This document shows positions 1-64,000 of a DNA stretch of 64,000 nt, in pieces (the first letter of the stretch is position 1; the number at the start of each line of letters is the position of its first letter). Source of the stretch: Candidatus Omnitrophota bacterium (lineage in GTDB: Bacteria; Omnitrophota; Omnitrophia; Omnitrophales; Aquincolibacteriaceae); contig JBDRCT010000031.1 of the NCBI GenBank assembly GCA_043821445.1, positions 35,620 through 99,619 of the forward strand. The letters are read 5' to 3'. Made by a program: the position numbers and the translations under genes. A model generated the notes under the pieces. It made no database searches and was not told the DNA's origin. It was given only the letters and a program-made list of their open reading frames with translations.

Positions 1-176
1 TCAAACAAGAAAAGGAAATACACGCTAAGGTCCAGGATCATGCCAAACATCTAGAAGAAGCCTTTCTTGCCCTGGAGAAAAAGATCAACACGGTTCTCTA
101 AATCCCGCAGCGGTGATCCTCAGAGGAGTATTTAACAGGTAGTAAGACCAGCTTGGAGCCAATTTTTCTCTACAGA

Positions 177-38420: not shown

Positions 38421-38764
38421 GGCGGTCTGCGCTCCTCTTTTTATTCCCGATTTTCAGTACCGTTCTCCATTTATTTTAAAGGTTAACGGTACCCTACTGC
38501 AAACCCTAAAAATCAATTGGAATGCAGCATGATGGATTCTTTTATGACGCGAAAAAGCTAACATCAGAAACGTCTTTTTGCAATAGCTCCTGGAATAAAA
38601 AGACAGATGACTTCACCCGTCTTTGCCCGTTCCCAAGGTACCCCCGTTATCTTTCCATTGACGAAGTTCCTCAGATAGAGCAATATATAGCAAAAGGTGC
38701 GCCTTGGAAGTGCCGATGGTGATATCAACACGACAAAAAGCATATGGGAAAAACAGGGGGAACC

Positions 38765-41161: not shown

Positions 41162-41493
41162 TCCGCGTCACTTTCCCGGGAACTTCCGCGGTTTCTCCCG
41201 TGACTCGCACGCCCTCTTTTTTCCCTCATGACCCGCGTTCCTGAGGCCCTTTTTCCCGTCTGTTCTGGCCCACGCCGGAGACTTTTTCCCAAGGAAGGGT
41301 AAAGCGAAAAGAAAGATTTTTGATTGCATGGAAATGTATTACAATTTCAGAGAAGCTCATTCAATGCCTTGTCTTTCGAGCTCCTTTGAGTACGAAGGAT
41401 GGGTGTGTTCAAGGAAAGGGTTGAATGGGGAAAGAGTGTCCGGTCCGTTGACGCCCGGCATTGTGGGGTCCGATATTTGAGGTGCTATTCGAG

Positions 41494-44371: not shown

Positions 44372-45843
44372 AAGTCCTGCTGGCTTGCCCCAACGATAGT
44401 GAGCTCGCGGCTTCTTTTAGCAAAAAAGGCGGGGTGTCGATCCCTCTGGGGCTTGCGTATCTCGGCGCGTATGTTCAGGATATTCCCGGAATTGAGTTAG
44501 CGGGATTGGATAACAATGCCCTGAAATTAGAGCCGGAAAAATATCGCGAGATCATTGCCCGTGAAGCTCCCGACATTGTTGCGATCAGCGTGATGACCGC
44601 AACGGTATTTACCACATGGGAAATGGCGAGGGTGGTCAAGGATATTAATCCTCGCGCGATCATTGTGGTCGGAGGCGGCCACTGTTCGGCATTGCCCGAG
44701 AGCACGTTCGAGGAACCTGCCATCGACTATGGGGTGGTGGGGGAAGGGGAAGAGGCCTTCCGCGAACTGCTTATGGCACTCCTGGAAAAACGGGATCCGT
44801 CCCGTATCCCTAATCTTATTTACCGACACGACGGAAAGGTCCACGTCAATCCCAGGCGTTCCCCCATCCGGGACATCGACAAGATCCCTTTTCCCAAACG
44901 CGATCTTTTCGACAATTCTAAATACAATATGAATGTCAACCGGCGCGCTACCTCCGGGAAAAACACCACCCTTCTTACCAGCCGTGGGTGTCCCTACGGA
45001 TGCATTTTTTGCTCTAAATCGATCTACGGGCACCATTTTAATCAGAGATCCCCGAAGAACGTGATCGAGGAAATAAAGGCTCTTGAAAACGAGGGTTATA
45101 GCGAGATCCTGATCGTGGATGATACGTTCACCGTCCATAAAAAATGGGTGTTGGAATTCTGCGGTCTCTTTAGCGAACTCCAACTCAAAATGCGGTGGAA
45201 TTGTCACGCACGCGTGAATACCCTCGACGAGGAAACGGTCTCGGCGATGAAGCGGGCGCATTGCACGGGGATGGCGTTCGGGATAGAGTCCGGGAATCCG
45301 GAGATGCTGAAAAAAATAGACAAGCGCATCACCCTGGACCAGGCCCGCGAGGCGGTCCGCCTGTGCAGAAAATACGGGATCAGCACGCTCTGCAGTTACA
45401 TCTTCGGCCATCCGGGGGACACGCGTCAAACGATGAACGATACGCTCCGCGTGGCTCTGGAGTTGGACTCGGACTATGCGAATTTCTGCGTTCTGGTGCC
45501 GATGCCGGGGTCCAAGATCTTTGATGATTTGATGAAAAAAGAAAACGTCGAAAAAAGATGGGACCGCTATCTGGCACATTCCAAATCCCCGATGGCCAAC
45601 AGTCTTTGCGAGATCTCTCAATCGGAACTTCAGACGATACAGAAAAGCGCTTTTCGGCGATTTTATTTTCGGCCCAAATATATCTGGCGGAAACTACTTG
45701 CCATTAAAAATCCTGCAGCGCTATGGAACTTGATCAAAGGCGCCTATATCGTGTTACTCTTTCAGATTCAGGCAGTGTCACGGAAAAATCGTGGCGAAAC
45801 AGGTAGCCGTGATGCGGGTAAAAGTGATCATGGGGCAGAATAA
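44368..45843 (+). CDS. B12-binding domain radical SAM protein, paralog 3
   Basis: ATGA overlap with the upstream gene. SRGCPYGCIFCS motif. Confidence 0.8.
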   Translation: MKVLLACPNDSELAASFSKKGGVSIPLGLAYLGAYVQDIPGIELAGLDNNALKLEPEKYREIIAREAPDIVAISVMTATVFTTWEMARVVKDINPRAIIVVGGGHCSALPESTFEEPAIDYGVVGEGEEAFRELLMALLEKRDPSRIPNLIYRHDGKVHVNPRRSPIRDIDKIPFPKRDLFDNSKYNMNVNRRATSGKNTTLLTSRGCPYGCIFCSKSIYGHHFNQRSPKNVIEEIKALENEGYSEILIVDDTFTVHKKWVLEFCGLFSELQLKMRWNCHARVNTLDEETVSAMKRAHCTGMAFGIESGNPEMLKKIDKRITLDQAREAVRLCRKYGISTLCSYIFGHPGDTRQTMNDTLRVALELDSDYANFCVLVPMPGSKIFDDLMKKENVEKRWDRYLAHSKSPMANSLCEISQSELQTIQKSAFRRFYFRPKYIWRKLLAIKNPAALWNLIKGAYIVLLFQIQAVSRKNRGETGSRDAGKSDHGAE

Positions 45844-45869
45844 AGTGAGCGAGGAGATCGACTGCGGGT

Positions 45870-46823
45870 ATGAATGAGCCATCCGTCAATGTCATTATCC
45901 CGGTCCTGAACGGAGAGCGCACGCTTGCGCAATGCCTGGAGGCTATCGTCCGTCAAACTTATGGCGGCAAGATCATCCCGGTGGTCATTAACGACGGTTC
46001 CACCGACCGCACCTCCGAAATTGCGCGATCGTTCAAAAATGTCCAACTCGTTGAACAGGAAAATAAAGGACGGGCCGTGGCACGTAACGCCGGCATTGCC
46101 GCCTCCGGTGCAGAAATCCTGGCCTTTACCGACGGCGACTGTATTCCCACTGAGACCTGGCTGGCGGTGCTTGTGGAACAGCTTACAAAGCAAGGCAAAA
46201 AACGCGGCCTTGTGGGGGGATCGGTTGCGATCCCCTCAAAAACCAATATTTGGCAGCGGCTTGACCATCAGGCCTGGGCGCATTCTATCGGGCCGGAAGC
46301 TCCCGCCGGTCCCACGATCTTCGGTTCCACCGCCAATATGGCCCTCTTCAGGACGGTATTCAACGCGGTGGGAGGTTTTGATCCCCGTCTGCGGGGGAGC
46401 GAGGATTCCGATTTGGCATTCCGGATACACCGCGCTGGATACGAAAATTTCTTTGAACCCAAGGCGGTCGTGATGCATGATCATCCGCGTACCACGATGG
46501 GCGCTTTTCTCCGCCAGCGCTTCAATTACGGAAAGTGGACCATACAAACGGTGCTCAAGCACAAGCCCTTGCCGCCTTATTCCTGGATGTTCCCGAACAG
46601 TCGGATCCTGTTGGCTTTGCTCTGGCCGTGTTATGCCTTTTTGGCGACCGTCTTTACCGTGCTGCGCAATCTTCCTCGCGATCCCTCTGTCCTTTGGCTG
46701 AGTCCCCTGCACTTGTTGGGGCGCATTTGGGAATATCTCGGCACCGTGGCAGGTTGCGGGGATTATCAGCGGATCTTCGGCAAGGACGCCGGGTCACGCA
46801 CGCAAGGAGATCCCCGATGCTGA
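45870..46823 (+). CDS. Glycosyltransferase family 2
   Basis: VNVIIPVLNGERTLAQCLEAI...VVINDGSTDRT GT-A N-terminus. DGD/DxD-like motifs. Confidence 0.8.
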   Translation: MNEPSVNVIIPVLNGERTLAQCLEAIVRQTYGGKIIPVVINDGSTDRTSEIARSFKNVQLVEQENKGRAVARNAGIAASGAEILAFTDGDCIPTETWLAVLVEQLTKQGKKRGLVGGSVAIPSKTNIWQRLDHQAWAHSIGPEAPAGPTIFGSTANMALFRTVFNAVGGFDPRLRGSEDSDLAFRIHRAGYENFFEPKAVVMHDHPRTTMGAFLRQRFNYGKWTIQTVLKHKPLPPYSWMFPNSRILLALLWPCYAFLATVFTVLRNLPRDPSVLWLSPLHLLGRIWEYLGTVAGCGDYQRIFGKDAGSRTQGDPRC

Positions 46824-47878
46824 CCGATATCCTCCAATGGAAGCTGACTTCGCGGGCATGCCGTCTGCCCCTCTATATGATCGTTTTTGTGACCTACCGG
46901 TGCAACTCCCGGTGCCGGACTTGTTTTTATCACGAGCAGATCGAAAGTCCGCAGTCCGCGGACTTGCCGCTCGATTTTTATGCCGAGGTGGCGCGTTCGC
47001 TGCCTCGCTTACTTTGGCTGCATCTCTCGGGCGGTGAACCTTTTTTACGCAAAGACCTGCCGGAGCTTGTGGCGGAGTTCTACCGGCATTCCGGCGTTCG
47101 CAAGATCGGCATTCCCACGAACGGTCTCGCGGGGGAGAACCTTTTGGAGAGCGCCCGCCGGATCCTCGCTCTTTGTCCGGAGGCACAGCTCAATATTGTT
47201 TTGTCCCTGGATGGATTGGAGAAAACACACGATTTTCTGCGGGGCGTTCCCGGCAATTATCAAAAGACGATGCTCGCGCTCGAAGGGCTCAAAGAGATCC
47301 GCTCGAAACATCCCCGGTTGGCTTTGAACGTGTGCACCGTTCTCAATAATTACAATGCGGGGGAGATCCCGGAATTGTTACGGCACGTGCAGGAACTGGG
47401 CGTTGACTTTCACGATGTGGGACTCTTGAGAGGAGATTTCCCTGATAAGAGCCTGGAACTTCCGCCGGCCGACGAAGTGGAGAAGATCCTGGACCTGGTG
47501 GATTACTATGCCGAACGTTATTACGCGGCCGGCCGCCATTATCCGGGGGTGTCTGCCCGTCTTGCCGCCCGGGCGCACCGGCACCTCAATCGTTCTTTTC
47601 TCGAGTTTTTACGCACCGGTACGGTGGCCCGGCCTTGTCAGATCGGGGACGGATTCGCCGTGATAGAGCCCAACGGCGATGTGCGCTTGTGTGAGATGAC
47701 GCCCGTGATCGGGAACCTTCTTAAATGGCACGGTGATCTTGCCGCTTTCTGGAATAGCACCGCCGTACGCAAAGCCAGGCGAACGGGGCTCTGTTCCGCC
47801 GGCGCCTGTACGCACAGCAATTTTCAGACACGGAATTTTCTTTTGAATCCCGGCCAGTGGTGGAGGGCCTTCTCCTGA
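46817..47878 (+). CDS. Radical SAM protein with C-terminal SPASM-like Cys cluster
   Basis: ATG at 46817 overlaps the GT2 stop. YRCNSRCRTC (Cx3Cx2C). C-terminal CQIGDG...CEMTPV...CSAGACTHSN cysteine cluster. Confidence 0.7.
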   Translation: MLTDILQWKLTSRACRLPLYMIVFVTYRCNSRCRTCFYHEQIESPQSADLPLDFYAEVARSLPRLLWLHLSGGEPFLRKDLPELVAEFYRHSGVRKIGIPTNGLAGENLLESARRILALCPEAQLNIVLSLDGLEKTHDFLRGVPGNYQKTMLALEGLKEIRSKHPRLALNVCTVLNNYNAGEIPELLRHVQELGVDFHDVGLLRGDFPDKSLELPPADEVEKILDLVDYYAERYYAAGRHYPGVSARLAARAHRHLNRSFLEFLRTGTVARPCQIGDGFAVIEPNGDVRLCEMTPVIGNLLKWHGDLAAFWNSTAVRKARRTGLCSAGACTHSNFQTRNFLLNPGQWWRAFS

Positions 47879-49278
47879 AGATCCTTTTTCTGAACCCGCC
47901 CTTTGGCTCGCGCCGTCCGGAAGGCCTTGATGCGCCGATGGGCATCATGTATCTGGGCGCCGTGCTGAAGCAAGCGGGGCACTCGTGTTCCCTGGTGGAC
48001 CATGTGTGGGAAAAACAAGATGATTGGCGCAAATGGGATCTTGCGCTTTCCAAAAAACCCGATGCGGTGCTCGTCAACACGCAGATCCGGTTCAGTAACG
48101 AGACCCATGCGGCGATGCGGAGACTCCGGTCCCAATATCCTTCGCTCCCGGCGATCGCGTTCGGTCCCCAGGCCTCGACGGAGCCTTCCCGGTTATTACT
48201 GGAAACGGGATTTGACGCTTGCGTGATCGGCGAACCCGAAGAAGTGATCCCTGACGTGTTCCATGACATGGCAAGGCGAAAGACGATCTTGGCCCGGCCG
48301 GGTATCGCCACCGTGGAAAACCCGAATTCCGGACCGGCGTCCCGGATGGACGTCGAAAAACTTCCATGGCCCGATTGGGACTTGGTGGAATACGGGCGGT
48401 ATATCCACTCCACCCACAGCGCCGTTTTTATGGCTTCGAGGGGATTGAACTATGAGGATAAGTTCAATCAGCCGCCGCTTATCTATGCGAAAAAACCCAC
48501 TCGGCGTCTCAGTATCGAACGCGTCATGTGCGAACTTACGCAGTTACGCGAACGTTTTCCTGGCAACTACATGCTTCTTTTTCACGATGAGATCTTCACG
48601 GAAGACCGAGATTGGGTGATCAAACTATGCGCCGCATTGAGGAAATCCCAATGGAAAGCGCCTTATTGGTGCTTCACTCGTCCCGATCTTATCGACACAG
48701 AACTTTGCCGCACCCTGCGCCGGAGCGGGTTCGTGGGCCTCAGCATGGGGATGGAAAGCGCCTCGGACCGGATCCTGGGGATCTTGGGGAAAGAGTTGAC
48801 CGTTTCCCAAATTGAAAAAGGATTCCGTTCGGCACAAAAAGCGGGGCTTCTTACGACAGGCTCGGTCATGATCGGCACCGCCAGTGATGAACTGGGACAA
48901 CCCGATGAAGACCGGCGCGAGCTCGAGTCGACTGTCCATATGGTAGGCCGCCTGCATCCGGATGTTCTTACCGTGACGCTCACCACTCCGCTGCCGGGAA
49001 CGCCTCTGTATGAGTCTTTGAAAGAGAGGGTTCTGGCAAAGTCACCGGAGGAATTTAACTATTATCATGTTTGGCCCGGAAAATATCCGTTACGCCTTGA
49101 AACTCTTACCGCCGGGGACCTTGCAAAAGCCGCGGCGCATATCAGGGCCGTATGGAAACGCAAACTTTGGAAAACGGCATTAAGAATATTGGTCCTTGCT
49201 TTTAGTAATGGAGCGTTCCGTAATACCTTGTTCAACCAGATCGCAAAGGTCGTGAAGCGCAAAGTCCTTCCTGCGTGA
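47857..49278 (+). CDS. B12-binding-domain radical-SAM-like protein lacking the CxxxCxxC motif (probable pseudoenzyme)
   Basis: Clear homology to the three upstream paralogs (LFLNPPFGSRR..., downstream core). The position of GRGCxxxCxFC reads ASRGLNYEDKFN, so all three Cys are replaced. Confidence 0.65.
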   Translation: MVEGLLLKILFLNPPFGSRRPEGLDAPMGIMYLGAVLKQAGHSCSLVDHVWEKQDDWRKWDLALSKKPDAVLVNTQIRFSNETHAAMRRLRSQYPSLPAIAFGPQASTEPSRLLLETGFDACVIGEPEEVIPDVFHDMARRKTILARPGIATVENPNSGPASRMDVEKLPWPDWDLVEYGRYIHSTHSAVFMASRGLNYEDKFNQPPLIYAKKPTRRLSIERVMCELTQLRERFPGNYMLLFHDEIFTEDRDWVIKLCAALRKSQWKAPYWCFTRPDLIDTELCRTLRRSGFVGLSMGMESASDRILGILGKELTVSQIEKGFRSAQKAGLLTTGSVMIGTASDELGQPDEDRRELESTVHMVGRLHPDVLTVTLTTPLPGTPLYESLKERVLAKSPEEFNYYHVWPGKYPLRLETLTAGDLAKAAAHIRAVWKRKLWKTALRILVLAFSNGAFRNTLFNQIAKVVKRKVLPA

Positions 49279-49294
49279 TCGCCGGAGAAATCAC

Positions 49295-50305
49295 TTGATG
49301 GATATATCGGTTTGCATTGTGACCTATAACGCCGCAGAACATATCGGTGCCTGCCTAAGGTCGATCCTGAATCTCGTGCCCCATGGCGGCAGAACGGAGG
49401 TCCTGGTGGTCGATGGATGCTCCACGGATGATACCCTCAAAATAGTCCGCGGTTTTGCCGGCCGTGTCCGTCTCGTCGAAAATCCGAAGAGGACGATTGC
49501 CTCGAACCGGAATGTGGCCCTTCGCGAGGCCCTCTATCCCTACATCGCCTTCACGGATTCAGACTGCATCGTGCCGCCGAACTGGCTTGGGATGCTTGCG
49601 GCATCCTTCGAGGAGATCCAAAAAAACGATACCCGTTTAGCCGGCGTGGGCGGCGGAAACATAGCTCCTTCCGGGGAAAGCCCGTTTCAGACCGCGCTCG
49701 GCATCGCGCTTGATTCATTGCTCGGCAGTCTCGGTTCCGTGCAGGGAAGGATCTTCGTGGAACAGCGCCGGGTGGCAAGTATCGCGTGCCTCAATGCCCT
49801 CTATGCGCGCGCCGCCCTGGAATCAGCCGGGGGATTCGATGAACTCTTGGGAAATATGTGCGAGGATGCGGACATGAACTATCGCCTGAACAAAAAAGGA
49901 TACGGATTGTATTTTGTTCCCGGGGTTCTCGTGGAGCACGGTGCGAGGCGGTCGTTTGGGTCCTGGTGCATGAATATGTATCATTACGGGATCGGCCGGG
50001 CCAGGATCATGCGTAAGCACCGGACCCTCTTTTCTCCGGCGTACGTGATCGCTTTTCTTTTTCTTCCCGGATTATTCGTCGCAAGCCTGTTGGGCATCTT
50101 GTGGCCGCAGGCTTTTCTCGTGTGGCTCTACATTCCATTTGTGATGCTTTCCGGTTTTTTTCTAGCGATGCATAAACACCCTGCTTCAGGCTTGCGTGTA
50201 GGCCCTATTTTGATCGGGACGCATCTTTTTTATGCCGCGGGCCTTTGGCACGGATTTTTCGCGGGTTATCCCGGGAATTCCGGAACCGGTCAAGTGAGGT
50301 CCTAG
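49295..50305 (+). CDS. Glycosyltransferase family 2 with C-terminal TM segments
   Basis: ISVCIVTYNAAEHIGACLRSI...VVDGCSTDDT GT-A N-terminus. Two C-terminal TM helices. Confidence 0.8.
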   Translation: MMDISVCIVTYNAAEHIGACLRSILNLVPHGGRTEVLVVDGCSTDDTLKIVRGFAGRVRLVENPKRTIASNRNVALREALYPYIAFTDSDCIVPPNWLGMLAASFEEIQKNDTRLAGVGGGNIAPSGESPFQTALGIALDSLLGSLGSVQGRIFVEQRRVASIACLNALYARAALESAGGFDELLGNMCEDADMNYRLNKKGYGLYFVPGVLVEHGARRSFGSWCMNMYHYGIGRARIMRKHRTLFSPAYVIAFLFLPGLFVASLLGILWPQAFLVWLYIPFVMLSGFFLAMHKHPASGLRVGPILIGTHLFYAAGLWHGFFAGYPGNSGTGQVRS

Positions 50306-50466
50306 CACCGCATAGTATTTTAAATGAGGGGTATGCGGTACAGCGCTTGATTTTCATTAATAAAAAATGATCAGAAATCAGTGCAGTCCAAGTCACCATT
50401 CATGAAAAGAAATAAAGACTTGGGCAGTACTTTTAACCCTTAAAATGAAATGGAGAAAAGTACTCG

Positions 50467-50877
50467 ATGTTCCTTAAAGAGCATATCCTTACGGGAGCTG
50501 TTGCGGCGGGGGTGGTGGGCTGGTACGTATCCCCCCAGGCGGGTATTTCGGTGCTGGCCGGAAGCGTGCTGATTGATGTGGACCATTACTTATGGTATAC
50601 CGTAAAATTCAAAGATAACTCGCTCGGACGGGCCACGCATTTTTTTGAAGCCAAAGAGGCGGATCACTATTATTGTCTTTGTGTTTTGCATACGGTCGAG
50701 GTGATCGCGGTCTATATCGCCGGGGTCTTATTCATGCATGGCGCGATCTTTTGGATTTCGGCCGGCTGTCTCATGCATATGGCGCTTGACGTGGCCCAGG
50801 GCATTCTGGACGGGGGGCTCTTTCGCAGAAAGTGGAGTCTGATCCACGCGATCTTCTTTCGCGCCAGGGGCGGGTGA
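50467..50877 (+). CDS. Hypothetical membrane protein
   Basis: Three to four hydrophobic helices. No recognisable motif. Confidence 0.45.
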   Translation: MFLKEHILTGAVAAGVVGWYVSPQAGISVLAGSVLIDVDHYLWYTVKFKDNSLGRATHFFEAKEADHYYCLCVLHTVEVIAVYIAGVLFMHGAIFWISAGCLMHMALDVAQGILDGGLFRRKWSLIHAIFFRARGG

Positions 50878-50919
50878 TTTTTTTTCATAACGTAAAAAAT
50901 GATAAGAAAGGATCAGGCG

Positions 50920-51642
50920 ATGAGCGGCACAAACAGTTCGCGTTCGCTGGTGCTTATCCCGGCCTATAATGAGGCTTTGCGAATAAGCGGGCTTATTGAA
51001 AGTATCAGGCGTGTCGTACCTGAAATGTCCATTCTTGTGGTGAATGACGGTTCAAAGGATGATACTCTAAACATTTCCCGCCTATCCGGCGCTACCGTCG
51101 TCACTCACCCTTTTAACATGGGATACGGCGTTGCGATCCAAACCGGTTACAAGTACGCTCTTGCCCAGAACTATGATTATCTTGTCCAGCTTGACGCCGA
51201 CGGCCAGCACGATCCGTCCTGCATTTCGGCGCTTTTGGCTCCGGTGATCGCGGGAACGGCCGATTTCGCTATCGGCTCGCGTTTTCTCGGGAACAGCTAC
51301 CGCCCGCCGCTTGCGCGCAGGGTGGGCATGGCGCTCTTCCGCGGGATCGTATTTCTGGTCACGGGCAAGTTCATTACAGATACGACCTCAGGATTTCAAG
51401 CGTTCAACCGTGAGGTCATACGTTTTTTTTCTACGGATATCTTTCCCGTCGACTATCCGGACGCCGATATGCTGATCACGCTCCATCGCGCGGGCTTTCG
51501 CATGATCGAGATCCCGGTCCGGATGATCGAAAACCGCGACGGAAAATCCATGCACGGCGGATGGAAGCCGGTCTACTACATGTTCAAGATGCTGTTGTCC
51601 ATTGGCGTGACGCTCATGAGGGCCAAGGGAAAAAATAAATGA
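50920..51642 (+). CDS. Polyprenol-phosphate glycosyltransferase (GT2, DPM/GtrB/ArnC-like)
   Basis: LVLIPAYNEALRI...VVNDGSKDDT...VQLDADGQHDP. Typical of polyisoprenyl-phosphate hexose transferases. Confidence 0.8.
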   Translation: MSGTNSSRSLVLIPAYNEALRISGLIESIRRVVPEMSILVVNDGSKDDTLNISRLSGATVVTHPFNMGYGVAIQTGYKYALAQNYDYLVQLDADGQHDPSCISALLAPVIAGTADFAIGSRFLGNSYRPPLARRVGMALFRGIVFLVTGKFITDTTSGFQAFNREVIRFFSTDIFPVDYPDADMLITLHRAGFRMIEIPVRMIENRDGKSMHGGWKPVYYMFKMLLSIGVTLMRAKGKNK

Positions 51643-51771
51643 GATGCCCTGCGATCGTGCGGCGGTATCAACCTAGCACCGCCTCAAGATTGAATTTATG
51701 GGTTGGCGGTACAGCACTGTTAATCCATAAAATCCAAATTGAAAACAGTGCTAGGGAAAAACGGGGGAACC

Positions 51772-52137
51772 ATGCTTGAAAGCCAAAAAATATTTGCTTT
51801 ATTGACTTGCTGTTTTGTTTTTGTGTATACCCTCAATCTGGTGAGAAGGCGAAAACTCCGCGAAGAATACTCCGTCCTCTGGCTGGGGACCAGCCTGCTG
51901 ATGTTCATCCTCGTGATACGCTACGAATGGCTCGTGGCCCTCACCGGCCTGATCGGAGCCGGCCTGCCGACGACCACTTTGTTTATTGGCGCGATCATCT
52001 TTCTCATGCTGATAGCGGTTCAGCTTTCGATCAAGATATCGAATCTGACAGACCAGGTAAAAAATCTTGCCCAGGAAAATGCCTTGCTCCGGAACGAGGT
52101 GATCCCATGTCCGCGAGGACCGGACGCAAAGGGATAG
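51772..52137 (+). CDS. DUF2304-like small membrane protein (partner of the GtrB-type GT2)
   Basis: Two to three TM helices plus a C-terminal coiled coil. Conserved synteny with DPM-like GT2 genes. Confidence 0.55.
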   Translation: MLESQKIFALLTCCFVFVYTLNLVRRRKLREEYSVLWLGTSLLMFILVIRYEWLVALTGLIGAGLPTTTLFIGAIIFLMLIAVQLSIKISNLTDQVKNLAQENALLRNEVIPCPRGPDAKG

Positions 52138-52226: not shown

Positions 52227-53585
52227 TTAGGATCGCCGCCAACTTATATGATCGTGTTTTACCATTGTGTTATCCAGAAGATGTGTGTCGGCATCTTCCT
52301 GCGAGATAAGACCTTTCTGAACACCTTCCCTTAGGGCGTCGTTACGCAAGAGCATTCCCTGAGCCCGATTCATCGCCATGACATTGTAGATCTGAATAGT
52401 TTGGTTATCCCGTATCAGATTACGGATCGGAATCGTGACCGGCATCGTTTCAAAGATCGCCACACGTCCGGGGCTGTCCTTTCTTTTGAGCAGGACCTGC
52501 GAGATGACCGCCTGAAGCGTCATGGCCAGCTGGACCCTCATTTGAGACTGTTGGTTGGGAGGGAAGACGTCGATCAAGCGTTCGATGGCTTGGACGGCAT
52601 CGTTAGTGTGAAGTGTTGCAAAGACCAGGTGGCCTGTTTCGGCTGCGGTCAAAGCCATCGAGATGCTTTCCAGGTCACGGATCTCTTCAACGACGAGCAC
52701 GTTCGGGTCTTCCCGGAGTGCCACACGAAGAGCGCTTGCAAAAGAGATCGCATCGTCTCCGATCTCGCGTTGGCTGATCACGCAGCATTTATTCTTGTGG
52801 ACATATTCGATAGGGTCGGACAGCGTGATGATGTGGGCATTCCTGTGATTGTTCATATGGTGCACCAAGGCCGCCAGGGTCGTGGTCTTGCCGCAGCCCG
52901 TGGCGCCGGTAAGCAGCACGAGCCCATTAGGCAAAGCGACCAGCTTTTCCATTAAGGGAGGAAGCCCGAGTTGCTCCATGGTGGGTGGGACAATGGGGTT
53001 GGCGCGAAAAACACCGCTCAGATGGTTCCGTTGATAGAAAAAATTAATACGGAACCGGTGGGTGAAATTCGGAAGTGTTACGGAACAATCCACTTGGCGG
53101 TTTTCAAGAAGATACTCTTTTTGATCCCTGCTGAGGAATATCTGGATGCAGGAATCCATAAAATCGTCCGTGACGGGTTTTACCTGCATGAAAGGAGACA
53201 GAATGCCGTCGATTCTGAAGATCGGATGGCTTCCCACCTGAAAATGGATATCCGAGGCGTTGCGACTCAGGCCGCTTTTCAAAACGCTCAGGACATCGTC
53301 CGGTGTTTTTGGAACGTTACCGGCCTTCTTGGAAGATTCTTCCTCGGGCTCGTTCTTTGGGTCCCCTTGAATATAGACGATATCGTCAACCATGAAAATC
53401 CCCCCCTTGGATTTTGAAAGTTCACGCTTGTAAGAAAAAGTATCTGTATAAAAGTATATCTGGAGGAAGGTTTGTTGGGAAGCATTTAAATGGGGATTTG
53501 TGTTGCGAAAGACCGGGTCTTTCGATATTTTAAAGGCCCTAAGCAAATCCGTCGCATACGCCTTTAACGGGAGATCCTGAGACAA
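52227..53585 (-). CDS. PilT/PilU-family type IV pilus retraction ATPase (with N-terminal extension)
   Basis: Walker A GLVLLTGATGCGKTTT. Asp box and His box (LVVEEIRD, TLHTNDAV). Alternative start at the Met corresponding to nt 53393 would give ~388 aa. Confidence 0.8.
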   Translation of the reverse strand: MSQDLPLKAYATDLLRAFKISKDPVFRNTNPHLNASQQTFLQIYFYTDTFSYKRELSKSKGGIFMVDDIVYIQGDPKNEPEEESSKKAGNVPKTPDDVLSVLKSGLSRNASDIHFQVGSHPIFRIDGILSPFMQVKPVTDDFMDSCIQIFLSRDQKEYLLENRQVDCSVTLPNFTHRFRINFFYQRNHLSGVFRANPIVPPTMEQLGLPPLMEKLVALPNGLVLLTGATGCGKTTTLAALVHHMNNHRNAHIITLSDPIEYVHKNKCCVISQREIGDDAISFASALRVALREDPNVLVVEEIRDLESISMALTAAETGHLVFATLHTNDAVQAIERLIDVFPPNQQSQMRVQLAMTLQAVISQVLLKRKDSPGRVAIFETMPVTIPIRNLIRDNQTIQIYNVMAMNRAQGMLLRNDALREGVQKGLISQEDADTHLLDNTMVKHDHISWRRS

Positions 53586-53595
53586 GGAGGTTGCC

Positions 53596-54279
53596 GTGAG
53601 TTCCTACGAATATACGATGGGGAAAACGTTGGATCTAAAAGCCGAGCAGGAGAGGACGCTTGCGACGCCCAAGCTTCCGGCGAATGGGATATTGAGGCTC
53701 ATGTTCTGGCAATTTAATGTGCTCTACGGGAAGCCTCGGTCGCTGCCGAAGGTCATGGTTCTCGAGATCCTTGCGCGCTACCCTTACTGGGCGTGGGAGA
53801 ACGGCGCCTACCATTTTTTGTCGAAACTTTACAGCGGTACCAAAAAAGTCCCCGTTGAAAAGGTCGAGGTGGCCCTGCGCCATATCCAAATGGGGCGCGA
53901 ATCACAGGATAACGAACAGTGGCACATGTTCCTTTGGGCGGACCTTTGCCACCAGAAGGGGATCAAACTCGGCTGGCTCCGTCATTTTGTGATCCCCAAG
54001 TCCATGACGCTTGTTTATTTCTTCATGACGCGCATCATGTATTGGCTCAAGCCTGTTTGGTCATTCGCCATGAACGCCGCCTTTGAGTCCCACGCCGAAC
54101 ACGAATACATGCTCTATGCCAAAGAACACCCCGAGTTTGAGGATATGCCTGTGGATTCTGTGTGGTTTCAGCATTACCCCAAGCAGAAGTCCTTGGCGGA
54201 TCTCATCCGTCGCGTGGGCCTGGATGAGCGGGATCACATGAATCACTCCCTGGAAGAGATTGAAAAGCTGACAAAGTAA
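53596..54279 (+). CDS. Hypothetical protein
   Basis: 227-aa ORF, helical and Trp/His-rich. No motif recognised. Confidence 0.4.
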   Translation: MSSYEYTMGKTLDLKAEQERTLATPKLPANGILRLMFWQFNVLYGKPRSLPKVMVLEILARYPYWAWENGAYHFLSKLYSGTKKVPVEKVEVALRHIQMGRESQDNEQWHMFLWADLCHQKGIKLGWLRHFVIPKSMTLVYFFMTRIMYWLKPVWSFAMNAAFESHAEHEYMLYAKEHPEFEDMPVDSVWFQHYPKQKSLADLIRRVGLDERDHMNHSLEEIEKLTK

Positions 54280-56790: not shown

Positions 56791-56988
56791 TGAAAGGGTG
56801 GCACGTATGAGGAAAGTGACGGCGAACGAGATATTGAATCAACGAACTTATGGCCCTGAAATCTTGTATATACCAGTGACGTCATTTTATACGGAGATCG
56901 CTCGCGAAGTGGCTTTTGCCAGTTGGAGCCAAAACAATGATTCGATCTATTTCCACCGGCAATTATTCCCAAAAGGAGGAAACAAAAT

Positions 56989-59900
56989 ATGAAGACCTTT
57001 GCGACGCGGAAATTCATCTGTGTTTTCACAGCGGTCAGTTTGGCCTTCTTACAGGTCGTTCCCGTGAGTTTTGCGAGACCGGCCGTTCTTGTCGATGAGA
57101 CTGGCAATTTTGTTCCCGAGCAACCTGTGGACCAGGCATCTGAAGCCACGCCGGATCAAATCCCATCGGATCCCCTAAGTGAATTTCTATCCGGAGACAA
57201 TCCGCTCTCCGAGTCGACCGATGAGTCGGCGTTAGCTGCTGAACAAGCTGCCGCGGATCAAGCTGCCGCGGACCAAGCTGCCGCGGATCAAGCTGCTGCG
57301 GACCAAGCTGCTGCGGACCAAGCCGCCGCGGACCAAGCTGCCGCAGATCAGGCTGCCGCGGACCAAGCTGCTGCGGACCAAGCTGCTGCGGACCAAGCCG
57401 TCGCGGACCAAGCTGCTGCTGAGCAAGCCGCCGCGGAAGAAGCCGCAAGGATTACGGCAGCACAGGAAGCGGCTCGTATTGTTGCGGAGGCGGAGGCTGC
57501 CCGGATCGCAACGCAACAGGCGGCGGAAGAGGCTGCCCGGATCGCAGCGCAACAGGCGGCGGAAGAAGCTGCAAGATTAGCCGCGGTAGAAGCCGCAAGG
57601 ATTGCCGCAGCTGAGGAGGCTGAAAGATTGGCTGCTGAAGCGGAAGCTGCCCGGCTTGCCTCGCTTGTTCCTTCGAATGAGGATCTCGATATTTATTCCA
57701 CAATTCCTTGGCAAAATCTTACTTCGGAGCAACAGCAGCATTTTATCGATTTGTACGCCAACGGTAATAACGTAAACACTATTCCGACGAATTTTGATAG
57801 CAGCAGCTCTTTTGCGTATGCCCTTGGCCTGGGGAATCAGGCAGGGACGGTGGTAGGTGCTAATAATCAAACCTACGTTAATGACGGTTCCGGATGGATG
57901 ACGGCGGAAGAGGCTGCCCGGATCGCCGCGCAGCAGGCAGCGGAAGAGGCTGCCCGGATCGCAGCGCAACAGGCGGCGGAAGAGGCTGCGAGGTTAGCCG
58001 CATTGCCGCCAGCTTCCGTAGTTGTTAAAAGCGCCGTGACACCGGATATTAATGATGCGTCCAAAGGAACGGTCGTGATTACCAATGCTGATGGGACGAC
58101 GACTGAGATTACAGTTGCGGTGTTACCGGATGGAAGGATTTTCGGGACCGACGGGCAGGAAGTGAGCGGGCTTAATGACGCAACGGCACAGGCGATTCGT
58201 AACGCCATTGCCACGGGAGCTCAGGATGCGGCAAGATTGGCCGCGCAACAGGCCGCCCAAGAGGCTGCCCGGATGGAGGAGATCCTCACATCTGCCGGAA
58301 GCCTGTCGTATGGGTCTTTGTCTGAAAGTGAACGGAATGCGCTGACCGCTTATCTGACGGCGCATCCCTTCGCGCTGCTGGATCAGAATGTTTCGGCTTT
58401 TGCCCCGGGCTCAGTATTTGCTTGGGCGCTGGGAAGCGGTACGAATACAGACGTGAACGATGCAGCCCGTTCTTTGGGGTTTGTCCGCTATGACCCAGCG
58501 ACGGGAACGTTCGTAAAAATTTCGGAAGCAAGTCAAGGAGCCGCGCCAACCGTGACCGTTCAAGGGACTGTAAGGCCGGATATTAATGATGCATCAACAG
58601 CGGCTATCACGATCACGAACGCTGACGGGACTACGTCGCAAATGACTGTGTCGGTCCTTCCGGACGGCAAGGTCTTTGGAACGGACGGACACGAAGTCAC
58701 GGGACTTTCGGAAGCCACCCTGCAGGCCATCCGGGATGCGATTGCTGTGGCCAAGGCAACTCCGCCGGCTACGCCGCCCGCAACACCATTGGTTCCGACA
58801 CCAACTCTAACGACACTTTATGCCACCACTTCCTGGCAAGACCTTACGCCTCAACAGCAACAGGATTTTATTAATTTATACGGCAACGGCAATCATGCCG
58901 ATACGATTCCCTCCACGTTTGGTAGCGGCAGCGCTTATGCCTATGCCTTAGGATTAGGCAGTATTTTGGGCACTCGGGTCGGGCTTGATTCCAGGATTTA
59001 TACCAACGATGGAACCACTTGGAGGTTACAAACTGCGGGGGTAGGGGCAACCTTCAGGGGAAGCACAGATTTCAATCTGACCACAGGTGCACAGGATGTG
59101 CTTAATTCTTTGAGCAACGGTGGCAGCAGTGTTCCCATCCAGCTCTGGGCAGCACCCAATTATACAGCGCACTATCCGACAGATACCTTCGACTCCAGTA
59201 ACATCAATAGTTTGCTTGATTTGGTTCAATCAACGCCGTTCCAGACATTCTTGGGCCAAATGAACCAGGAAGGCGGACAAACTGTGGTGCTTACGGCGAA
59301 TACATTTTCAAACTGGAATTTTCTTGGCGGTGCAGGAACTTTTGACGCGCAGGCGGAACACGACGAGATGGCGGCGTTGGCGCGCTATTTGACCGAAACG
59401 TACCCTAATACTGTGTTCGTGATCCAGAACTGGGAAGGGGATAATGACATACAACGCACAGGCTTTGGCCTTTCCGAAGGTTCTCCGTTTGTCGGGAACG
59501 GCCTTTTTGTTCCCACCGACGAGCAATTGCAGAGTTATCAAGATTATCTTGCTGCCAGGATCAGCGGGATCAACGATGGCCGTGGAAATCTGAGAAATGT
59601 TCTGTCCGCGGCCACGATCAGCTCCACGTACGGGGTTCCCGATGCCAACGACCCCAATAGCACAGGACAGAATTGTGTGGCAGCGGCGATCAGAAATTTA
59701 ATAGCCCAAGGCACGGTGCCGGACATTGTGGGCTATTCCGCATATTATACGGTCAATGATCCCGTTGCGGCTGGGAGGCAGGCTTGGGATCCGAATGTGC
59801 CCCTTGATTTAAATACTCGCATCAGCAATGACTTAAGGAATCTGTGCGCTTTTTTAGGTATCACCCCTCAGCAGTTAATGATTTCCGAATTTGGTTTTTC

Positions 59901-62900
59901 AAACAATGCGCCTGATGCATTCGCGAACACCCAGGAAGCCATTGATGCGTTTACGCAATTGGGTGTGTTTAATCTGCAGGCGTGGTCGCTTACTGACGAC
60001 GGGACCGGAGACGGCCTCTATGTTTTACAAAGAAATCCCGATGGCACCATTACCCATAGTCCGATGGGGCAGGCCATATTTGACCATAATACGCTGGTAG
60101 TTCTTCCGGACGGCAGGATCTTGGGGCCGAATGGACAGGAAGTCACCGGGCTTGACGATGCTACGGAACAGGCTATTCAGGCCGCGATTGCTGCAGCGCA
60201 AGCGGCAGCAGAGGCAGCGAGGATTGCCGCGTCTCCGTCCGTGGTTGTCGAGGGGGCTGTTACTCCCGATATTAATGACGCATCGAAAGCGACCGTTACG
60301 ATCACGAATGCTGACGGAACAACATCACAAATGACGGTATCCGTTCTTCCGGACGGCAGGATCTTCGGGACCGACGGGCACGAAGTGTCGGGACTTTCCG
60401 ATACCGCGATGCAGGCCATTCGGGACGCGATCACCAAGGCCAAGGAGGGTCAGCTTCCCGGGGATACATCGGCTTCATTGCCGCCTGCTCCTACCGCTCA
60501 AACTCTCTCCGGGCAAACTTCCACTGCCACGACACCCGCACCGCAAAATCACACGATCAATAATTGGATCGAGCCTCTGAATTATTCCGTGATTTTTAAT
60601 GCGGACGGCAGTGTTTCCGTGATCCTTGACGGCAAAGAGATCGCGAAAGGGAGAACTATCGCAGATCTTCAGGCGGCCGCCAATACCTATCCAGCGATTT
60701 ATGCGACGCCCGGAAGGCTCGTGATCAATGATGTCATGCGTAACTTCACAGACTTTTTCAGTACTACGGCTACGGGGGCGGTAACAACGAACAATCGGCC
60801 TACGGTCGCCGCTGATTCCGCAAGAGAAGTGTGGAGGGATGAATATGGTACTTCCGTTGCATGGTTCAGCGAGGTCGGGGGGCGGGTTTTCCTCTTGCCT
60901 GACGGCCGGCTTATTTTTGAAAAAGCGGATGGATCATACTCCGTCCTGACCGTGGGGACTACTGCGGGCACCGTCAGCCAGACCACTTACAATACTGTTA
61001 GGGCCCAACTGTCCAATACGACGAGCGCCGGGTCCGTAACGATCAGCCTCAGCCCCGCCGGCCATAATCTTGCGGGTGAGATCGGAACAAGTACGTCGAC
61101 CAAGCCCTATAATGGTGGAACAGCGGGGAAATGGATGTCTTGGGACCTTTGGAGTGAGGAAACATGGGACCTTTTAAGCCCTTACAATCTGACCACCATG
61201 AGGAATGCCGACGGATCAAGTACGGCTTATACCTTTACGGTGACCATGAAAGACGGTACGCAGGTCGTAAGGACTTTTTTGAGCCTTGCGGAAATGACGA
61301 ATTTCCTGTATTCCTCCCGTGCAACAATGGATGCCTGGGAAGCCCTTTCGAACCAGGAAAAGGCATTGTGGTTTGCCATCATTGACGCAAAGGACAGAAG
61401 TCCGCAACTGCGTAATGTACTTCTTCCCGGTTTACCGACCGCCACGACCAATTCCGAGATGGTTTATAAGGATCCCGAGACCGGCCAGGTCACCACCTGG
61501 GGCTACAACACGGCCTATTGGTCGACGCCGGAACAGGTCCAAATGCTTCAGGTCTTATTTCCCAATTCTAAGCTCTATGAAGTTCTGCGTTACTTTCCAT
61601 GCGCGACCATGGTCTATGACCCAACTGACAACCGCCGTGAATTTGAACTGATCCTTGCGGACGGCACGCATGTCAATGTCGGGATGTTGTTGCGCTCCAT
61701 GCACTGGAACGAACAGACCCAGACCTATGATATTTGGTCGCTTGATGAAGCCACTGCCAGGCATTTGCAGTCGACGGCGGATTTCAACGTCAGAATCCTC
61801 AATGTGATCACGCCGCCCCCTCCGCCGCCGGCACCTGCCCGAAATTTTAATGTGAAGACCATTTTGGATCCGGTCACTAGGACTGAGATATCCTTCTCGC
61901 TAGCCGATCGGGCGGGATCAAAAACAGCGGGAGTTGCAACGCTCCGGGTGAACGGTCAAGAGCGTCAGGGTTTCTTGATGTATGAGAACCGGACAATTAC
62001 GTGGTATTCACCAACGGATATGGACACCACATGGACCGTCCAGCTCGAGGATACACAGAAGGGCACCTATTATCTCCAGTCCTTCACGATCGAGTCGAAG
62101 TCCGGCACGAAAGAAGTCTATCATTTCGATATGAACGGCAGGGTCATCATGATGTATTCGGTGACGGCTCCCGATGCGATGGGCAAGGTCAGCTATAAAA
62201 CGACCTATTATGACCAGGACTGGTCGAAAGAAGTGCTTCCTCCCGCGCCCGGCGATTCCATGATCTATCCTGCTACGCTCAAGTACTACAATACCAGTGG
62301 CCAGTTGTACAAGGATATCGGCCTGGACAAGGACGGGAAGATCGTCGCTATGACCGTATATGGGAAATATGGGAGCACAACGATCGCGGCGATCGCGGTA
62401 GTGACTCCGGTCAAGGTTGTGGTCGAGAACGCTGTTACTCAAAAAGCTTTCGCAGAGAATTACTACGACGCTCAAGGTAAGTATTTAAAGACCGTGTATT
62501 TGCCGCAGGATCCGGCGCCTTCTACTCCCGGAACCACGACGCTAACAACATCAGCTCCGATCAGCGGATTTCCGATGCAGGTCCCGGCCGTGTGGCATTA
62601 TGACGGGACGACTGTGGTCGATGCCGCTATGGGGAAGTCCGTGTTTGTTTCGATCACGGATTACGGGAGACTCACGCTTCGCTGGGACGGTCAGGAATAC
62701 ACGGCGAACTCCTTTGACTATGTCTGGAAAGGAGTCACATTCGAGTCTGAGGACGGGACGGTCATTGGGGCACAATTCAATCTAGACTCGAAGGGTTATC
62801 TTTATTTGTCCAATTTTTACCTTCTTCCGACTGCCGGGGGGAGTTCGAGGAACTATAGTTTTAACGCGCAGGGAAAGATCATCGGGATGAGCTTTCAGAT

Positions 62901-64000
62901 CTATAACCTTGAAAGTCACGTCGGAAGGAACATGACCATTGCTTTTGATGCGCAGGGGAATGTGATGGGAGGTGTAGGCCTGCCGGGAATCCCGGGTCAG
63001 CAAGGATATTCCTCGATCGCGGGCATTTCGATCGTTTCCTCCGATGTCGTCCTTCTAACCTTAAAAGATGGAAGCCAGTATCAGGTGACACTTGATATCA
63101 GCGGGCAGGTGGTCATGACACAAGTCAAGGCTCCGACAGCGCCCGCGGCTATAACGCCGACTCAAACCACAACGATTCCGGCACCGGCTCCAACACCAAC
63201 ACCAACACCAACACCAACACCAACACCAACACCAACACCAACGCCAACACCAACGCCGATTTCGACAGGGCCTCAAGAACCCGTGGTAAAACACTATCAA
63301 GCTACTCTCATTGTCGATCCCAAAACGCGCCAGGAGCTTTATTTCTCTGTCACCGATAGCGGAGACGTGACCCTAAGGTGGAACGGCCAGGAATACAGTG
63401 CCAGCTCCTTTGACTATAAGTGGAAAGCTGTGACATTTATGACGGCGGAAGGCACTATCTTGAGTGTCCAGCTCAATCTTGATACGAAGGGACTGCTTTT
63501 TCTCTCGAACTTTAATGTGAAACCAGCTTTTGGCGGGGATTCCTATGTCTTTGATATGCAGGGTCGCGTTCTCAGCAAGACCTCAGTGATCATTAGTGCA
63601 TCGGGAGTCCAGACAACGCAGACAACTTATTATGATGCGCAAGGGAATGTTACGCCAACACTAACGCAAACACCGGTCACGACATCTGTGTCCACTCCAG
63701 TCACAACTTCTGTGACAACTCCTGAACCAGCACCCGTGTTATCCCGGATACCAGCACCAGCGCCGGTTGAAAGCGCAACACCCGTCGAAAGTCCAAAACC
63801 AACGGCGGGAGTCGGCGTCATTGTGAGCCAGCTTGAAGACACGGAACCTATACCGTATCCCGTAGTTCCTGAAAATTTTGCGACAGCCGGGTCCTCTGAT
63901 GTCGCGGCGGATGAGACTGTTGTCATCCCGGTTCCCGGGAACATGCCCCCGATAGTGGCTGATACACCTATTCTTGTCAAATCTCCGGTCCTAGCTCCTG
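56989..64000 (+). CDS. Second giant secreted repeat protein (partial, >2337 aa, runs off window end)
   Basis: RBS AAGGAGGA. Signal peptide. (AADQ)n and Ala-rich coiled coil. Four copies of a ~60-aa module (VTPDINDAS..ITNADGTT..VLPDGRIFGTDG.EV.GL). GH-clan-A-like segment (VIQNWEGDND...MISEFGF). Duplicated ~75-aa beta modules. (TP)n linker. No stop before nt 64000. Confidence 0.85.
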   Translation, partial: MKTFATRKFICVFTAVSLAFLQVVPVSFARPAVLVDETGNFVPEQPVDQASEATPDQIPSDPLSEFLSGDNPLSESTDESALAAEQAAADQAAADQAAADQAAADQAAADQAAADQAAADQAAADQAAADQAAADQAVADQAAAEQAAAEEAARITAAQEAARIVAEAEAARIATQQAAEEAARIAAQQAAEEAARLAAVEAARIAAAEEAERLAAEAEAARLASLVPSNEDLDIYSTIPWQNLTSEQQQHFIDLYANGNNVNTIPTNFDSSSSFAYALGLGNQAGTVVGANNQTYVNDGSGWMTAEEAARIAAQQAAEEAARIAAQQAAEEAARLAALPPASVVVKSAVTPDINDASKGTVVITNADGTTTEITVAVLPDGRIFGTDGQEVSGLNDATAQAIRNAIATGAQDAARLAAQQAAQEAARMEEILTSAGSLSYGSLSESERNALTAYLTAHPFALLDQNVSAFAPGSVFAWALGSGTNTDVNDAARSLGFVRYDPATGTFVKISEASQGAAPTVTVQGTVRPDINDASTAAITITNADGTTSQMTVSVLPDGKVFGTDGHEVTGLSEATLQAIRDAIAVAKATPPATPPATPLVPTPTLTTLYATTSWQDLTPQQQQDFINLYGNGNHADTIPSTFGSGSAYAYALGLGSILGTRVGLDSRIYTNDGTTWRLQTAGVGATFRGSTDFNLTTGAQDVLNSLSNGGSSVPIQLWAAPNYTAHYPTDTFDSSNINSLLDLVQSTPFQTFLGQMNQEGGQTVVLTANTFSNWNFLGGAGTFDAQAEHDEMAALARYLTETYPNTVFVIQNWEGDNDIQRTGFGLSEGSPFVGNGLFVPTDEQLQSYQDYLAARISGINDGRGNLRNVLSAATISSTYGVPDANDPNSTGQNCVAAAIRNLIAQGTVPDIVGYSAYYTVNDPVAAGRQAWDPNVPLDLNTRISNDLRNLCAFLGITPQQLMISEFGFSNNAPDAFANTQEAIDAFTQLGVFNLQAWSLTDDGTGDGLYVLQRNPDGTITHSPMGQAIFDHNTLVVLPDGRILGPNGQEVTGLDDATEQAIQAAIAAAQAAAEAARIAASPSVVVEGAVTPDINDASKATVTITNADGTTSQMTVSVLPDGRIFGTDGHEVSGLSDTAMQAIRDAITKAKEGQLPGDTSASLPPAPTAQTLSGQTSTATTPAPQNHTINNWIEPLNYSVIFNADGSVSVILDGKEIAKGRTIADLQAAANTYPAIYATPGRLVINDVMRNFTDFFSTTATGAVTTNNRPTVAADSAREVWRDEYGTSVAWFSEVGGRVFLLPDGRLIFEKADGSYSVLTVGTTAGTVSQTTYNTVRAQLSNTTSAGSVTISLSPAGHNLAGEIGTSTSTKPYNGGTAGKWMSWDLWSEETWDLLSPYNLTTMRNADGSSTAYTFTVTMKDGTQVVRTFLSLAEMTNFLYSSRATMDAWEALSNQEKALWFAIIDAKDRSPQLRNVLLPGLPTATTNSEMVYKDPETGQVTTWGYNTAYWSTPEQVQMLQVLFPNSKLYEVLRYFPCATMVYDPTDNRREFELILADGTHVNVGMLLRSMHWNEQTQTYDIWSLDEATARHLQSTADFNVRILNVITPPPPPPAPARNFNVKTILDPVTRTEISFSLADRAGSKTAGVATLRVNGQERQGFLMYENRTITWYSPTDMDTTWTVQLEDTQKGTYYLQSFTIESKSGTKEVYHFDMNGRVIMMYSVTAPDAMGKVSYKTTYYDQDWSKEVLPPAPGDSMIYPATLKYYNTSGQLYKDIGLDKDGKIVAMTVYGKYGSTTIAAIAVVTPVKVVVENAVTQKAFAENYYDAQGKYLKTVYLPQDPAPSTPGTTTLTTSAPISGFPMQVPAVWHYDGTTVVDAAMGKSVFVSITDYGRLTLRWDGQEYTANSFDYVWKGVTFESEDGTVIGAQFNLDSKGYLYLSNFYLLPTAGGSSRNYSFNAQGKIIGMSFQIYNLESHVGRNMTIAFDAQGNVMGGVGLPGIPGQQGYSSIAGISIVSSDVVLLTLKDGSQYQVTLDISGQVVMTQVKAPTAPAAITPTQTTTIPAPAPTPTPTPTPTPTPTPTPTPTPTPISTGPQEPVVKHYQATLIVDPKTRQELYFSVTDSGDVTLRWNGQEYSASSFDYKWKAVTFMTAEGTILSVQLNLDTKGLLFLSNFNVKPAFGGDSYVFDMQGRVLSKTSVIISASGVQTTQTTYYDAQGNVTPTLTQTPVTTSVSTPVTTSVTTPEPAPVLSRIPAPAPVESATPVESPKPTAGVGVIVSQLEDTEPIPYPVVPENFATAGSSDVAADETVVIPVPGNMPPIVADTPILVKSPVLAP
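57235..57435 (+). repeat. Tandem 15-nt repeat (GCTGCCGCGGACCAA)n encoding (AADQA)n
   Basis: About 13 near-perfect 15-nt units inside the second giant gene. Confidence 0.9.
63190..63256 (+). repeat. Hexanucleotide microsatellite (ACACCA)n encoding a (TP)n linker
   Basis: About 11 units (ccaacaccaacaccaacacca...) inside the second giant gene. Confidence 0.9.

Follow-up and report, generated by a model that had tools for sequence, protein, structure and literature searches.

What is the function of a giant, signal peptide-bearing protein of a Candidatus Omnitrophota bacterium that is assembled from repeats, spacers and a hitherto unannotated domain? The question is raised by an open reading frame (ORF) at positions 56989-64000 (+) of a 64,000-nucleotide (nt) stretch of contig JBDRCT010000031.1 (assembly GCA_043821445.1, positions 35,620-99,619, forward strand; the whole stretch is hereinafter called the window). 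This target ORF consists of 2337 codons without a stop and is still open at the window end, just as an earlier note on this DNA had described it, namely, as a partial gene for a protein of more than 2337 amino acids (aa). The evidence described below somewhat favors a Sec-exported, fiber-like mosaic protein that presents a glycan-binding or glycan-cleaving barrel of the glycoside hydrolase clan A (GH-A) type on long spacers, a reading that agrees with what has been published on large proteins of Omnitrophota and with the placement of the barrel family among phage tail genes.

Enzymes of clan GH-A, also known as the '4/7 superfamily', are retaining glycosidases that adopt a (beta/alpha)8 barrel fold, with the acid/base glutamate at the end of strand beta4 and the nucleophile glutamate at the end of beta7. 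The predicted model of aa ~680-1030 of the target (59026..60078; this and all other features of the target lie on the + strand) is a (beta/alpha)8 TIM barrel, and all its top structural matches belong to GH-A, at 5-15% identity to any solved member of the clan. PslG is one among many equally good GH-A matches, and no single GH family stands out. The earlier note had drawn attention to a ~330-aa region carrying the motifs NWEGD and ISEFG and likened these to the GH-A beta4 acid/base and beta7 nucleophile sites. Both motifs are indeed present, at aa 814-818 and 965-969, respectively, and the proposed equivalence is supported by the conservation of the two glutamates, the GH-A structural matches and the alignment of the beta7 GEFG motif of the barrel family with the GEFG nucleophile motif of GH5. 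The predicted acid/base residue, E816 (codon 59434..59436), is found in 107 of 107 relatives and lies two residues past predicted beta4 (model residues 139-144, E147); the predicted nucleophile, E967 (codon 59887..59889), is found in all 101 relatives aligned at this position and lies inside predicted beta7 (model residues 294-299, E298). Both residues were placed with DSSP rather than by residue-level superposition. Two other assignments, a GH13-like one based on carboxylates in beta4, beta5 and beta7 and a GH18/GH85-like one based on a D/N-x-E motif on beta4, were rejected given that the top structural matches are all GH-A and that GEFG aligns with the GH5 motif.

When 1.84 billion cluster representatives were searched exhaustively with HMMER, using aa 600-1799 as the query, 46 proteins were retrieved, about 30 of which match aa ~680-1040; for the most part, these are 300-620 aa in length and share 27-33% identity with the target. 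The phmmer E-values against these ~30 cluster representatives range from 7e-14 to 1e-3, with the matches spanning the whole ~330-aa domain, and we define the 'NWEGD' barrel family by the resulting alignment (A1). Altogether, 107 distinct family members were aligned to the A1 profile, including 73 retrieved by a profile search and 11 of viral origin. Nearly all relatives are 300-640 aa in length, and the target is the most divergent member of the family, with 22-28% identity. Three glutamates, in beta4, in beta5 (within an E-x-N motif) and in beta7, are 100% invariant in the family; the target keeps only those in beta4 and beta7. The family has apparently escaped annotation: there is no Pfam domain on record for any of the 73 profile-search members (73/73), in the 10 relatives tested, no Pfam domain covers the barrel region and no GH family of Pfam or NCBIfam is matched, the source names, where there are any, read 'hypothetical protein', with the single exception of an 'IPT/TIG domain-containing protein', and searching the literature for NWEGD turned up nothing relevant. 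The named family members come from metagenome-assembled genomes (MAGs) of Acidobacteriota/Blastocatellia and Polyangiaceae.

Eleven IMG/VR viral contigs encode ~350-aa proteins that consist of the barrel alone and match the family hidden Markov model with E-values of 1e-58 to 1e-103; the (N/Q)WEGDW motif is found in 11/11 of these proteins, D..S[YFWL][ST].Y in 10/11 and the strict GE[FYW]G in 7/11. In five of the six contigs examined, the family gene adjoins tail, baseplate or virion-structural genes. In contig L086, it lies between tailspike-like and tail fiber-like genes and three baseplate genes; in L091, L094 and L095, the upstream gene matches a 'tail terminator' PHROG, and in the latter two contigs, virion-structural PHROGs are found next to it; and in L092, a virion-structural gene is located ~2 kb downstream. 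In L087, the single neighbor tested has no PHROG match. We read this recurrent placement as what would be expected of a virion-associated enzyme acting on host surface glycans.

Several observations, however, speak against the favored reading of the target protein. The beta5 glutamate that is invariant in 107 of 107 relatives is replaced by threonine (T876; codon ACG, 59614..59616), and the mostly conserved beta5 asparagine is replaced by serine (S878); the domain therefore may be inactive or possess a changed specificity. In the N814-W815-E816 motif, the asparagine is at position -2 relative to the glutamate instead of -1, so that the N-E signature is lacking, which is unusual for GH-A; in the relatives, the -2 position is occupied by N (86/107), Q (12/107) or D (6/107). 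Searches of Pfam, NCBIfam and PDB sequences with the whole protein and with the segment detected no significant family, and in particular, no GH family of Pfam or NCBIfam is matched by the target at E<=10. The neighborhoods of four stand-alone bacterial family members share no common or carbohydrate-related theme and yield no substrate clue. Finally, the visible sequence ends before the C-terminus and hence before any features that would indicate the mode of anchoring or export.

These observations bear on the possibility that the barrel derives from GH-A enzymes but has lost catalysis and acts like a lectin, such that the old active-site cleft grips a glycan without cutting it and the protein is purely an adhesin or fiber. 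The replacement of both beta5 residues favors this possibility, all the more so because at least two substitutions separate the ACG codon of T876 from any glutamate codon, so that it is no simple error; so do the divergence of the target from the rest of the family and the location of its barrel among spacer and adhesin-like repeats, with almost all relatives being proteins of 300-640 aa. Conversely, the two glutamates that define GH-A catalysis are retained, as are D818, D912, W815 and W999, and the beta5 glutamate may affect specificity only. We consider such a dead domain possible but unlikely. From the sequence, the barrel may be either an active retaining glycosidase with an altered specificity or a binding-only derivative.

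The start of the gene conforms with the strong ribosome-binding site and signal peptide that the earlier note had reported. The sequence AAGGAGG (56973..56979) precedes the ATG at 56989 by 9 nt, and the N-terminus, MKTFATRKFICVFTAVSLAFLQVVPVSFA|RP, is a Sec-type signal peptide (aa 1-29; 56989..57075) with a basic n-region, a hydrophobic core and the predicted cleavage site VSFA|RP. This is the sole membrane- or signal-like hydrophobic stretch in the 2337 aa: the only other segment above a Kyte-Doolittle score of 1.6, at aa 1798, is weak and resembles a beta strand, and accordingly, the hydrophobicity scan detected no transmembrane (TM) helices in the visible sequence apart from the signal peptide.

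The rest of the visible protein is a mosaic of repeats and spacers, which we delineated by self-comparison of the protein sequence and, for tandem repeats, with TRF. The signal peptide is followed by an (AADQA)n array (aa ~86-150; 57244..57437), in which TRF detects 12.9 copies of a 15-nt unit, in agreement with the 13 units counted previously. Next comes an Ala-rich spacer, AEEAARIAAQQA, with a 12-aa period encoded by 36-nt units (aa 150-222; 57436..57654); TRF also detects 24-nt Ala-rich units, and further copies of the spacer occupy aa 306-340 (57904-58008), aa 398-430 (58180-58278) and aa 1058-1081 (60160-60231). The composition suggests that these spacers are helical, and the EEAAR-type period of 12 residues, which is incompatible with heptads, looks more like that of a rigid single-helix spacer than that of a coiled coil. 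Toward the C-terminus, there is a (PT)11 linker (63190..63254; CCAACA x 10.8 copies by TRF), as previously noticed, and a Thr/Pro/Val-rich low-complexity tail (63766..64000) within which the ORF runs past the window end.

Two kinds of small modules alternate with these spacers. The W module, missing from the earlier list, is present in two copies that are 57% identical, at aa 226-305 (57664..57903) and at aa 601-680 (58789-59028), and there is a possible diverged copy at 58282-58533. Its relatives are found in P0007, P0009, P0014, P0035, P0004 and P0011 (alignment A3), and P0009 also contains an F5/8 type C domain. The W-module profile produced only non-significant matches to PDB, with E-values of 0.2-1.2. 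These faint matches are to the T4 fibritin foldon and a phage tail fiber protein and involve the C-terminal hairpin of the module (DG.TY.N..G.W), which offers a lead toward trimerization. The PDG module (alignment A4) had been reported as four copies of ~60 aa; the repeat is genuine, whereas the count is corrected to three full copies, at aa 338-410 (58000..58218), aa 516-588 (58534-58752) and aa 1079-1151 (60223-60441), and one half copy at aa 1035-1062 (60091-60174). The full copies are 63-78% identical to one another, and relatives are found in P0004 and P0011. This module gave only sub-threshold CFSR and Rib matches and, with the profile against PDB, only a non-significant match to an 'adhesion exoprotein' (E ~1).

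Downstream of the barrel, the target shares a conserved middle domain of ~430 aa (aa ~1180-1610; 60526..61818) with five large proteins, P0001-P0005. The domain is colinear in all of these, with 25-33% identity and domain E-values of 1e-20 to 1e-49. By self-comparison, the stretch of aa ~1160-1610 that includes it is unique within the target. P0001 and P0004 have a C-terminal LysM domain, and P0003 (MCL5775107.1) comes from a Patescibacteria MAG. The closest architectural relative of the target is P0004 (contig L081, ena:ERZ27247977:k141_2163030), a 2137-aa protein that combines an N-terminal membrane anchor, two PDG modules, a W module, the middle domain and a C-terminal LysM domain, and is encoded after N_methyl/PilX_N pseudopilin genes. 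The AlphaFold2 model of the middle domain, built from 6 sequences, is poor (pTM 0.31), and neither a Foldseek search with this model nor a profile search against PDB gave anything meaningful. Querying a word-indexed protein collection with aa 600-1160 or with the alignment of the middle domain returned zero matches, a result that carries little weight: P0001-P0005 are present in this collection, and the second zero is therefore a false negative. Apparently, low-complexity queries rich in Ala, Thr and Pro saturate the 8000-candidate prefilter of this search, so that the zeros do not imply that the protein is an orphan.

The C-terminal part of the visible sequence consists of three beta-rich modules, B1 (aa ~1605-1840; 61801..62508), B2 (aa ~1842-2040; 62512..63108) and B3 (aa ~2090-2260; 63256..63768), of which B2 and B3 are 44-55% identical; B2 has no sequence match in PDB. 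Two duplicated modules of ~75 aa had been described here; the duplication stands, but the duplicated segments (aa 1842-1992 and 2074-2221, 44-55% identical) are larger, ~150-190 aa, and a third, diverged copy is detectable at aa ~1610-1742. B1 includes a three-hairpin, YD-like unit of ~110 aa (aa 1721-1839) that recurs as a tandem module in P0006, P0008, P0013, P0021 and P0032. The target thus shares with the RHS/YD-repeat proteins YD-like hairpins (YYDAQGK, FDMNGRV, YVFDMQGRV), and P0021, which contains a unit related to aa 1721-1839, scores above the Pfam cut-off for RHS_repeat. However, no YD array long and continuous enough to build a shell is visible in the target, and membership of the C-terminal modules in the RHS/YD class is not supported, with no RHS_repeat or YD match to the target at any threshold in Pfam or NCBIfam; the genuine RHS protein encoded in the window gave only marginal matches to a home-made YD profile. 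By sequence criteria, the target is not a demonstrable RHS protein.

The window does encode such a protein, a first giant ORF (18439-31368, +) of 4309 aa, with a signal peptide-like N-terminus, MKRSFSFPLRWVAFCIAMIFGWNQIVWA, RHS_repeat (E 9.5e-22) and Big_13 domains. The target shows no detectable similarity to this RHS/Big_13 protein. In the closest MAG contig with DnaJ synteny, L003, only ordinary-sized ORFs are found downstream of the FadL-like gene, the site of the first giant gene in the window.

A mosaic of this kind could be an artefact of assembly or binning, whereby the ORF or its junction would represent foreign DNA, for example, from a Patescibacteria-like cell or a phage, on an Omnitrophota contig. 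The window itself is assigned by its DnaJ, which is 81-92% identical to homologs from four Candidatus Omnitrophota MAGs, and compared with the rest of the window, the target ORF is compositionally atypical: the tetranucleotide correlation is 0.66-0.69, versus 0.75-0.92 for other segments, and the correlation of relative synonymous codon usage (RSCU) is 0.58, whereas 14 ordinary genes range from 0.73 to 0.88 and the first giant gene reaches 0.89. This composition points to a recent acquisition. Furthermore, RlmH is encoded directly upstream of the target, and in the two closest RlmH-syntenic contigs (RlmH 74-77% identical), ordinary-sized genes follow RlmH and tblastn detects no relative of the target; relatives of its modules are encoded by phages and by a MAG of Patescibacteria. 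Pattern scans of 185,579 species genomes and of metagenome contigs with the C-terminal half of the target detected no relative.

The internal structure of the ORF argues otherwise. W, PDG and Ala-rich modules occur on both sides of the GH domain, with 57-78% identity between the copies and never 100%, and P0004, which comes from an independent assembly, unites PDG, W and the middle domain in a single protein; the ORF therefore appears internally coherent. Comparison of the DNA shows 63-78% identity among the protein-module copies and as much as 90% among the Ala-rich helix units, and because the copies have diverged, none looks like an assembly duplication. The GC content of the ORF is within the range of the rest of the window, and horizontal acquisition fits the same data. 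Hence we regard an artefact as highly improbable, whereas the target gene was probably acquired horizontally, given its atypical codon usage and its absence after RlmH in the closest syntenic contigs.

The neighboring genes raise another possibility, that the enzyme is directed at its own cell, trimming or releasing the exopolysaccharide or capsule in the manner of PslG or BcsZ, and is functionally tied to the cluster of glycosyltransferase and radical-SAM genes located upstream. This cluster (41461-52137) includes five B12-binding radical-SAM genes, one SPASM-type radical-SAM gene, three family 2 glycosyltransferase (GT2) genes and one DUF2304 gene, and has the appearance of a locus for modifying glycans or lipids. 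Between the cluster and the target, there are four unrelated genes, which lie on both strands; the codon usage of the target differs, syntenic relatives lack the gene, many other GH-A structures match the barrel as well as PslG does, and the phage tail-module context of the family favors foreign surfaces. Self-trimming thus seems improbable.

Other genes in the window bear on the cell envelope. Given that the window encodes MurB, GpsA and an outer-membrane protein of the FadL type, the cell is diderm. An ATPase gene of the T2SSE family is located at 52227-53585 (-), and among the window ORFs scanned with Pfam, no GspD, GspF or pilin genes were found. The window also contains an SPL-like radical-SAM gene, and no tRNA or Rfam elements were detected in it.

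Several further genes of the window deserve mention in their own right. Directly after the first giant gene, there are two small TPR proteins (31365-31874 and 32716-33225), and three small paralogous proteins with MORN_2 repeats (E ~1e-21 to 1e-23) are encoded at 34696-35214, 38744-39349 and 40113-40631 (+). A 227-aa protein (53596-54279, +) matches the alternative oxidase (AOX) di-iron family of Pfam with 28.4 bits, against a cut-off of 22.7, which is unexpected in an Omnitrophota genome. The TPR gene at 153-1925 (+), with a GDSL-like N-terminus and a low GC content of 0.42, is the most deviant in the window by codon usage (RSCU r 0.24), and is probably foreign, too.

Returning to the favored reading of a fiber-like protein with a glycan-directed barrel, its action can be envisaged as follows. 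After cleavage of the signal peptide, the Ala-rich helical and Pro/Thr spacers, together with the W and PDG modules, would hold out a single (beta/alpha)8 domain, followed on its C-terminal side by the middle domain and then by the three beta-rich modules with YD-like hairpins. With E816 as the acid/base and E967 as the nucleophile, the barrel would bind and, by retaining double displacement, might cleave a beta-linked glycan. We infer that the protein is exported beyond the periplasm and that its glycan target belongs to a matrix or to the exterior of another cell; the protein would then serve to contact or attack foreign cell surfaces, with the remaining modules supplying reach and attachment.

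A broader scenario, which we put forward tentatively and with considerable doubt, links the enzyme family with its genomic distribution. Under this scenario, the barrel represents an undescribed GH-A family with a three-glutamate signature (beta4 N-W-E, beta5 E-x-N, beta7 G-E-F-G) that is employed in phage tails and baseplates and as a stand-alone protein in soil bacteria. The target gene would have been acquired horizontally within a shuffled kit of W, PDG and middle domains shared with LysM proteins of the Patescibacteria type, this kit being a common, mobile toolkit for attachment and surface-glycan attack in ultra-small episymbiotic or predatory bacteria and phages; in the target, loss of the beta5 glutamate would have turned the barrel into a glycan-holding domain. 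Should the barrel family prove active, it would constitute a new glycoside hydrolase family with neither a Pfam model nor a solved structure, with members in Acidobacteriota, in Polyangia, in the tail modules of phages and in a mosaic protein of Omnitrophota. From the substrate of the family, one could tell which surface glycan is recognized by these phages and, possibly, by this ultra-small bacterium as well, and the module sharing with the Patescibacteria-type LysM proteins hints at an exchange of cell-attachment parts between unrelated ultra-small bacteria.

Among known systems, the barrel is to be compared, first, with the clan GH-A hydrolases (GH1, GH5, GH10, GH39/PslG, GH53, GH164). Unlike these, the target has N-W-E rather than N-E, its family has a third invariant glutamate on beta5, which the target lacks, and the barrel lies within a protein of more than 2337 aa, with no Pfam or NCBIfam match. 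With the tail depolymerases of phages, which reside in tailspikes or baseplates, the target shares the modular logic of fiber plus enzyme, and single-domain members of the barrel family are encoded among tail genes; the target, however, is a cellular protein with a signal peptide. Classic phage depolymerases are mostly beta-helix lyases or hydrolases and not TIM barrels. The large LysM-terminated proteins (P0001, P0003, P0004) have the same colinear ~430-aa middle domain, and P0004 additionally shares PDG and W, but neither the GH-A-like domain nor the C-terminal B modules are found in these proteins, and the C-terminus of the target lies beyond the window.

The nearest counterparts within the same phylum are the giant proteins of Omnitrophota, described as Archaeovorin and Dockerin types, with lengths of 30,000 aa or more (West-Roberts et al. 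2023, bioRxiv 10.1101/2023.11.21.568195). Features of these giants include numerous TM regions, a divergent SecA DEAD-helicase domain and a nearby locus resembling type II secretion systems (T2SS) or pili (bioRxiv 10.1101/2023.11.21.568195); a catalogue of long Omnitrophota proteins also recognizes an 'SP-only' topology class (bioRxiv 10.64898/2026.06.07.730766). Like these proteins, the target is very long, exported and largely unannotated by sequence, and its glycosidase-like domain becomes visible only through structure prediction. A gene for a T2SS/pilus-family ATPase is located nearby, with no GspD, GspF or pilin genes among the ORFs scanned with Pfam. In contrast, the visible 2337 aa contain no TM arrays, SecA-like DEAD domain or ladder of dockerin and CBM35 domains, and the target, seen only up to this length, may fall far below the 30,000-aa class. 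The protein type itself is expected for Omnitrophota, in which very large exported proteins with carbohydrate-active domains have already been reported; what is new here is the unannotated GH-A-like family, with its three-glutamate signature and phage-tail association, as well as the mosaic of modules common to the target and the LysM proteins of the Patescibacteria type.

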